From a virus (taxonomy: Duplodnaviria > Heunggongvirae > Uroviricota > Caudoviricetes): DNA of 6,563 nt. Shown one piece after another: positions 3,901 through 4,950 of this stretch; position 1 is the stretch's first letter; each line of letters begins with the position of its first letter. The notes beneath the pieces are model-generated. The model saw only the letters and a program-made list of their open reading frames with translations, was not told where the DNA came from and ran no database searches. The stretch covers positions 1 through 6,563 of the IMG/VR virus record IMGVR_UViG_2579778702_000004. One strand, given 5' to 3'. The translations under genes were made by a program, and so were the position numbers.

Positions 3901-4950
3901 TCAAACGATTAAATCCTGAACTTCCCTGACTGTCTGCTCAAAACGTCCGGTCTCCAGTTCAACGCCAATCGCACGACGCCCCAGTGCCATCGCCGCTTTT
4001 ACCGTTGAACCCGACCCCATGAAAAAATCCGCAACCAGATCACCAGGACGACTACTTGCGCTGATTATCTGCTGCAGCATTTCTGCCGGTTTTTCGCACG
4101 GATGTTTCCCTGGATAGTACTGCACCGGTTTATGCGTCCACACATCCGTGTACGGCACCTGCGCCGTCACGCCAAAATACCGCCGCAGATGCTTATATTC
4201 ACTCTGCAGTTCCGTATACTGCCGGTTCAGCTCACTGTATGTGCTGACCAGTTGGTAATGGGACTTTTCCAGTTCTCCCCGCTGATGTTTCTCTTCTGCC
4301 ACCCGGGCAAACAGCGACTGTAATTTCAGATAATCGCTTTCGTTCGGTAGCTGCCACTGACTGGCACTGAACCAGTGTGACACCATGTTTTTCTTTCCTG
4401 TGGCATCCACTATCTGTTTTGCCGTTATCCCCAGGGCAGCGCGCGCATCACGAAAGTAAGAAATCAGCGGGGCCATCACATGCTGTTTCAGTGCCCTGCC
4501 CTTCGCCTCATACCCGGCATCTTTCGGGCGATACGGCCCCTGATAATGTTCCGCGAACAGAATGCGCTCTGTGGCGGGGAAATACGCCCGCAGGCTTTCC
4601 TTGTTGCACCCGTTCCAGCGTCCGGACGGCTTCGCCCAGATAATATGGTTCAGCACACTGAAGCGTTCACGCATCATGATTTCGATATCAGATGCCAGGC
4701 GATGACCACAGAACAGGTAAAGGCTTCCGGCAGGTTTCAGCACCCGCCAGAACTGCGCCAGACACTGGTCCAGCCATTTCAGGTAATCATCGTCGCCCTT
4801 CCACTGGTTATCCCAGCCCTCAGGCTTCACTTTAAAGTACGGCGGGGCCGTGACTATCAGGTCAACAAAATTTTCGGGTAACGACCGGATAAATTCCAGG
4901 CAGTCGGCGTTGATTAACTCACAACTGGATATTTTTACAGTATTAGCCAT
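3901..4950 (-). CDS. DNA N6-adenine methyltransferase, beta-class (YhdJ-like), apparently orphan
   Basis: 349-aa ORF, ATG at 4948-4950, TGA at 3901-3903. Motif IV-like DLIVTAPPY near the N-terminus and AdoMet-binding motif I-like GDLVADFFMGSGST near the C-terminus (beta permutation). ...HPCEKPAEMLQQIISASSRPGDLV... aligns by eye with YhdJ ...[24 protein letters not shown].... A coiled-coil-like insert (ELEKSHYQLVSTYSELNRQYTELQSEYKHL) sits between the motifs. No restriction endonuclease gene is adjacent in the window. Confidence 0.85.
   Translation of the reverse strand: MANTVKISSCELINADCLEFIRSLPENFVDLIVTAPPYFKVKPEGWDNQWKGDDDYLKWLDQCLAQFWRVLKPAGSLYLFCGHRLASDIEIMMRERFSVLNHIIWAKPSGRWNGCNKESLRAYFPATERILFAEHYQGPYRPKDAGYEAKGRALKQHVMAPLISYFRDARAALGITAKQIVDATGKKNMVSHWFSASQWQLPNESDYLKLQSLFARVAEEKHQRGELEKSHYQLVSTYSELNRQYTELQSEYKHLRRYFGVTAQVPYTDVWTHKPVQYYPGKHPCEKPAEMLQQIISASSRPGDLVADFFMGSGSTVKAAMALGRRAIGVELETGRFEQTVREVQDLIV

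Follow-up and report, generated by a model that had tools for sequence, protein, structure and literature searches.

A natural allele of the M.EcoGII adenine methyltransferase family in an Escherichia coli prophage fragment carries the change of a catalytic-null mutant and is probably inactive

M.EcoGII is a prophage enzyme of 349 amino acids (aa) from Escherichia coli O104:H4 C227-11 that methylates adenine in any context, on both DNA and RNA (PMC5778455; PMC12707154). It is identical to M.EcoGI at 333 of 349 positions (PMC5778455). M.EcoGII is silent in the lysogen and harmful once expressed, and self-methylation of phage DNA against host restriction has been proposed as the role of the family (PMC5778455; PMC12707154); methylation protection has been shown in vitro. 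In an AlphaFold model of M.EcoGII, residues 1-134 and 260-349 form a Rossmann domain and a long charged linker is in part a two-helix structure, which was tied to non-specific binding (PMC11551740). An engineered M.EcoGII D35A served as a catalytic-null control, with N6-methyladenine (6mA) undetectable in cells (bioRxiv 10.64898/2026.05.12.724470). Here we analyze a gene at positions 3901-4950 of a 6,563-base-pair (bp) stretch of DNA (IMG/VR record IMGVR_UViG_2579778702_000004; hereafter the window), which is the entire contig JMGT01000108.1 of the draft E. coli assembly GCA_000687105.1. The window holds part of a lambdoid prophage's late region, with all genes on the minus strand. The gene belongs to the M.EcoGII family, and its catalytic motif reads APPY, not DPPY. 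Judging from its sequence, we regard this copy as a rare natural loss-of-function allele of the family that is probably catalytically dead, and we assign this reading a probability of roughly 0.7.

By descent, the open reading frame (ORF) is close to certain to be an allele of the M.EcoGII/M.EcoGI family. An exact-protein look-up identified its product as KDA70794.1 / WP_032299751.1. This protein and the M.EcoGII sequence given in supplement 5 of PMC11551740 share 94.9% identity over 349 aa, a value that is a lower bound since the printed text was machine-read with visible errors. At the DNA level, the gene shares 94.6% identity with its counterpart in phage 1720a-02, named as a close relative in the M.EcoGII paper (PMC5778455), and 85-95% with 'DNA methylase' genes in 49 other Shiga toxin (Stx) and lambdoid phage records. 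At E <= 1e-10, matches number more than 2,700 proteins; the nearest clusters contain thousands of E. coli members, and E. coli genomes hold up to 5 copies of the gene. The Pfam domain N6_N4_Mtase (PF01555) covers residues 29-340, and the order of motifs is that of the beta class: motif IV (35-38), a central region, and FxGxG (310-314), with motif I placed by alignment to M.BceJIV and M.RsrI. The gene and its parts are the following.

3901-4950, minus strand: M.EcoGII-family beta-class N6-adenine methyltransferase gene, 349 aa (PF01555, E 7e-44)
4867-4869, minus strand: codon 28, TTT (Phe); Ser in 98 of 117 homologues
4837-4848, minus strand: motif IV, A35-P-P-Y38; D-P-P-Y in relatives
4174-4548, minus strand: central helical region, residues 135-259, comprising a target-recognition domain (~160-237) and a charged two-helix linker
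4009-4023, minus strand: motif I, F310-M-G-S-G314 (FxGxG), the S-adenosylmethionine (AdoMet)-binding loop; intact, with invariant columns in the homologue alignment

The feature that sets this copy apart is the first residue of motif IV. Codon 35 (4846-4848) is GCC, compared with GAC in relatives, and the plus strand accordingly has G at 4847 where relatives have T. Each of the 120 nearest cluster representatives has Asp at position 35, as do 117 out of 117 that could be aligned. Among the 150 best cluster representatives at 50% identity, a comparison that reaches ~35% identity, 124 carry DPP[YF] and 8 carry D-x-P-Y, and none has a residue other than Asp at the first motif position. The remaining 18 consist of 16 N-terminal truncations, the protein P0149, and the 604-aa P0211, whose motif we did not examine. 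P0149, with DLLY at motif IV, was considered as a separate lineage and rejected: its many Pro-to-Leu and Ser-to-Phe changes throughout point to a damaged or error-laden sequence. The window protein has a second private change, S28F, with Phe28 present in one other cluster as well (P0045). Thus the window ORF lacks the canonical DPPY motif while being homologous by descent.

Because of D35A, the window copy is predicted to have lost its activity, as the engineered M.EcoGII D35A did. The protein would still fold and bind AdoMet and nucleic acid, but could not methylate. The first-pass annotation of this DNA had proposed phage self-methylation against host restriction for this gene. For the family, this role is the accepted one; APPY being the M.EcoGII D35A change, it probably does not apply to the copy in the window, which is most likely dead.

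The surroundings of the substitution were compared with known sequences. The window protein is identical to WP_032204252.1 at 345 of 349 positions, and the last ~860 nucleotides (nt) of the 1601-nt compared region, which include most of the gene and 41 nt past its stop codon, are identical in DNA. Between window positions 4800 and 5600, only two bases differ from the chromosome CP147059, at 4847 (D35A) and at 4868 (S28F). A pattern scan of IMG/VR revealed a second APPY allele, P0135 (KDX32488.1, MGU4640908.1), which also has the GCC codon but differs from the window gene at 50 nt. P0135 differs from a common DPPY allele by D35A alone. Two isolate assemblies and two gut-metagenome assemblies, which come from separate projects and different assemblers, carry it on three nucleotide haplotypes; the GCA_000704245.1 strain is one of its carriers. 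The presence of the same GCC codon on a separate allele in four datasets shows that APPY alleles occur in nature. They are rare: in IMG/VR a single locus has APPY, and at least 120 loci have the same 32-mer with DPPY. A search with a degenerate pattern for DLIVTAPPYFKV gave no match in the GTDB species-representative genomes and none in the JGI metagenome contigs, and matched a single IMG/VR locus. We did not retain purifying selection on P0135 as an explanation; the differences among its haplotypes are all synonymous, but the loci had been fetched by exact protein identity.

The first-pass annotation had described the protein as a YhdJ-like beta-class N6-adenine methyltransferase with a coiled-coil-like insert of ~50 residues. 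The beta class is borne out by PF01555 and the motif order. The likeness to YhdJ, on the other hand, does not extend beyond the shared core: the protein scored 107.1 bits against the cut-off of 292 of the NCBIfam YhdJ equivalog model (NF008572), and a YhdJ orthologue was therefore rejected. K-12 YhdJ aligns over the two core halves only, at residues 12-106 (32% identity) and 269-345 (39%), and the centre of the window protein has no significant similarity to it. The span between the conserved cores comprises residues 107-268 in the window protein and ~66 residues in YhdJ. The annotation had not associated the central segment with chromosomal YhdJ, whose centre is unrelated and ~96 residues shorter.

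The segment is indeed helical. An AlphaFold2 (AF2) model predicted helices at residues 145-173, 177-184, 190-193, 204-223 and 231-255, residues ~204-255 thus being helical, and within 234-255 hydrophobic residues follow a clean 3-4 spacing (L234, Y238, L241, Y245, L248, Y252, L255) in mostly invariant columns. It is not an insertion, since the larger domain to which it belongs is common to all 120 nearest cluster representatives (73-93% identical, most of them 348-359 aa long). The target-recognition domain (~160-237) is a four-helix bundle with a helix-turn-helix. The 'coiled-coil insert' is thus the family's normal target-recognition domain plus the charged two-helix linker, both already described from AlphaFold modelling (PMC11551740). 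In the window protein, this central segment would act as a non-specific nucleic-acid-binding domain together with the charged linker. Two relatives showed unusual architectures, each of which could be a rearrangement or a misassembly: P0001 (386 aa) has a 34-aa internal tandem duplication across the junction of linker and core, and in P0074 the first 281 methyltransferase residues are joined to a C-terminus resembling a tail-fibre-assembly protein (PF02413).

The other features of the window, from upstream to downstream along the minus strand, are the following.

5913-6500, minus strand: DUF968/HNH gene
5515-5910, minus strand: antiterminator Q gene (Pfam Phage_antitermQ, E 1.6e-52); the gene call of the public record starts at ATG 5895
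5416-5446, minus strand: intrinsic-terminator-like hairpin with U-tract, candidate tR', 69 nt past the Q stop codon (predicted fold -15.4 kcal/mol, z -2.8)
5102-5299, minus strand: 65-aa ORF of unknown function (phrog_331; PHROG 331, E 1e-37)
5088-5115, minus strand: second terminator-like hairpin with U-tract, with a weaker fold (-8.9 kcal/mol, z -1.4)
3602-3851, minus strand: three phage transfer RNA (tRNA) genes, CAT (ileZ-type), Arg-TCG and Arg-TCT, directly downstream of the methyltransferase
3138-3494, minus strand: 118-aa ORF (PHROG 2873, unknown function, E 4e-70)
2715-2905, minus strand: STnc100 small RNA (sRNA), full-length Rfam match (138 bits, gathering score 47)
641-2492, minus strand: nanS-p-like SASA/DUF6645 esterase gene, split in two ORFs of 258 and 365 aa
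275-568, minus strand: holin S, on the same strand as the methyltransferase

Phages 1720a-02 and phiP27 and E. coli chromosomes all have Q, the 65-aa ORF, the methyltransferase and the ileZ/arg tRNAs in this order; in the Stx phages, stx2 follows the tRNAs. The methyltransferase gene is on the strand of Q and downstream of it, has the orientation of the lysis genes, and is separated from Q by the two terminator-like hairpins. The second of them is located ~140 nt upstream of the methyltransferase start codon and is identical in OZ040035. With terminator-like hairpins between Q and the gene, Q-dependent read-through is the natural reading of the gene order, which fits the silence reported in lysogens and agrees with the late expression that had been deduced from the position downstream of Q. 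The late unit would thus run from Q through a terminator, the 65-aa ORF, a second terminator, the methyltransferase, the tRNAs, the stx slot and nanS-p to the lysis genes. In the lysogen the methyltransferase gene would be silent; it would be transcribed only after induction, when Q would let RNA polymerase pass the terminators. Wild-type enzymes are thought to methylate progeny phage DNA broadly, blunting host restriction.

The absence of a partner restriction gene, also claimed at first pass, holds more widely. The window contains no ORF resembling a restriction endonuclease. Endonuclease-like neighbours of the methyltransferase are also missing from phages 1720a-02 and phiP27, from two E. 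coli chromosomes and from four further contigs, and the longer related loci, where a flanking endonuclease would have made the gene part of a complete restriction-modification system, show none. The DUF968/HNH gene was considered as a restriction partner and rejected, being a conserved lambdoid prophage gene upstream of Q or another antiterminator in related loci. The literature covers the family together with its genomic position, orphan status and domain structure, and what the first-pass annotation had observed was in this respect already known.

Some details of the neighbouring features are worth recording. The stop codon of the 65-aa ORF lies inside the second terminator hairpin, and every related locus has this ORF between the Q and methyltransferase genes. 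ARAGORN calls the tRNA with anticodon CAT (3776-3851, minus strand) a tRNA-Met; its homologue is a tRNA-Ile in RefSeq genomes and ileZ in phiP27, where ileZ and argO are annotated. The block of three tRNAs is the ileZ/argN/argO set typical of Stx phages. The 118-aa ORF has no Pfam or NCBIfam match and fills the interval that stx occupies in Stx phages, and the STnc100 sRNA is located between the block of tRNAs and 118-aa ORF and the esterase gene.

The esterase gene itself is damaged. The nanS-p-like gene has two 1-nt deletions near 1750 and 1775, 25 nt apart, relative to its intact 618-aa homologues in CP147059 and OZ040035. In complete E. coli genomes, nothing matches the 85-nt segment around the deletions closely (86% at best). 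We do not take the deletions to be private changes, as the comparison showed only that both reference genes are intact there. Truncation also affects the methyltransferase gene elsewhere: among 103 IMG/VR copies readable from start to stop, 8 end early (74-294 aa) and the 5' frame is disturbed in 3 (loci L007-L126). The early stops indicate that loss of this gene in resident prophages is not unusual, and the window allele would sit in a late region with other decay, namely the frameshifted nanS-p. The P0135 allele (loci L127-L130 and L006) is found in late regions with an intact esterase gene of 617-618 aa and a different, 273-aa antiterminator. Judged by the intact esterase beside P0135, the substitution therefore also occurs in prophages without visible decay.

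Several points weigh against reading the window gene as a natural loss-of-function allele. The loss of activity of M.EcoGII by D35A comes from one preprint, where the mutant was used as a control. The AF2 model was built from 31 close homologues, with a predicted local distance difference test score (pLDDT) averaging 66, and was used for secondary structure and fold class only. A consensus sigma-70 scan for pR' between Q and the first terminator found no promoter. Further points concern the reality of the substitution. The exact protein is on record for JMGT01000108.1 only, a draft contig; the two private changes are separated by 21 nt in a stretch of ~800 nt that matches CP147059 everywhere else; neither D35A nor S28F occurs at any of 1,403 matching places in complete E. 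coli genomes; and the T-to-G change follows GGGG. The base after a run of G is a context that favours Illumina miscalls. Together with the two closely spaced deletions in nanS-p, these observations speak for a short, repeat-derived contig with errors from sequencing or assembly, whose true gene would be an ordinary DPPY copy, and the two private changes in a short draft contig, taken alone, could be errors. Nevertheless, the same GCC codon is present in another allele in four independent datasets, and the contig is on record for two samples. We consider errors of this kind unlikely, and the APPY allele of the window is probably real.

If the change is real, the enzyme might still be an active anti-restriction methyltransferase in which APPY keeps enough activity during lytic growth. 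The full-length ORF, the intact FxGxG and central domain, and the persistence of the second APPY allele on three haplotypes in four samples are in its favour. By contrast, Asp35 is invariant in the N-terminally complete relatives examined, and 6mA was undetectable with the engineered M.EcoGII D35A. Other DPPY/DPPW enzymes, for example METTL3 (D395A), are inactivated by the corresponding Asp-to-Ala change, which also counts against activity; we hold this explanation to be quite unlikely. A loss of catalysis could alternatively have been put to use. It seems improbable to us that APPY is a naturally selected dead form of a toxic promiscuous methylase, which would spare the lysogen leaky self-methylation or modulate active co-resident paralogues. 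A non-catalytic role of the protein, as a dead partner or dominant-negative of active paralogues or as a nucleic-acid-binding protein, tempering methylase toxicity in either case, is suggested by the dimeric elution of M.EcoGII (PMC11551740), by the up to 5 gene copies per E. coli genome and by the otherwise intact ORF. However, no lineage-level APPY representative exists in the 150 family clusters, the allele is rare in IMG/VR and missing from the GTDB representatives and the JGI contigs, it lies one mutational step from common alleles, as expected of a recent neutral loss, and the apparent synonymous excess comes from the exact-protein look-up, which makes such a role distinctly improbable. 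As for a DPPY paralogue in the window's own genome, a look-up of the neighbouring-accession P0138 did not return GCA_000687105.1. Finally, the gene might be half of a restriction-modification system with its endonuclease outside the window, which ends ~1.6 kb upstream of Q and ~3.6 kb downstream of the gene and leaves distant partners out of sight. Yet the longer loci show Q or another antiterminator, the 65-aa ORF, tRNAs, DUF3927, stx or nanS-p, and lysis genes; a non-specific adenine methylase offers a cognate endonuclease no defined site; and the family is listed as orphan, all of which renders this possibility extremely improbable.

A natural loss-of-function allele thus remains our preferred reading. 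M.EcoGII is sold as a reagent and probably serves Stx-type phages as a broad anti-restriction device, co-transcribed with Shiga toxin genes, and natural copies can bear the same catalytic-null substitution as a laboratory mutant. Annotations and methylome predictions that count each such ORF as an active non-specific methylase would sometimes be wrong. APPY alleles may also serve as natural controls for the value of the enzyme to the phage.

Compared with known systems, the window gene occupies the same slot as phiP27 L24, 1720a-02 AGR48369 and the methylase genes of Stx2a/2c-converting phages, between Q and the ileZ/arg tRNAs and upstream of stx or an empty stx slot; those copies have DPPY. 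Unlike the Stx phages, the window prophage is without stx, and the interval is taken by the phrog_2873 ORF and the STnc100 sRNA. YhdJ of E. coli K-12 (b3262) shares the catalytic core and is likewise orphan, but it has an unrelated centre and is encoded by a chromosomal gene adjoining fis. It is also site-specific (ATGCAT). The catalytically dead beta-class subunits METTL14 and MTA9 are ancient conserved partners, whereas APPY is a single-nucleotide variant that is rare and recent; were the selected form mentioned above true, the APPY protein would partner active paralogues much as METTL14 or MTA9 does. The site-specific M.PflMI has a similar predicted overall fold including the helical target-recognition domain (PMC11551740), but it is without the highly charged two-helix linker that the window protein has. 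The closest likeness is to M.EcoGII and M.EcoGI, which match the window protein in length, in sequence (~95% identity), in beta-class order, in the helical target-recognition domain and in the charged linker, and which are also prophage-borne, orphan and silent in lysogens. They differ from it in having DPPY where the window copy has APPY and Ser28 where it has Phe, and in the activity that the window copy is predicted to have lost.
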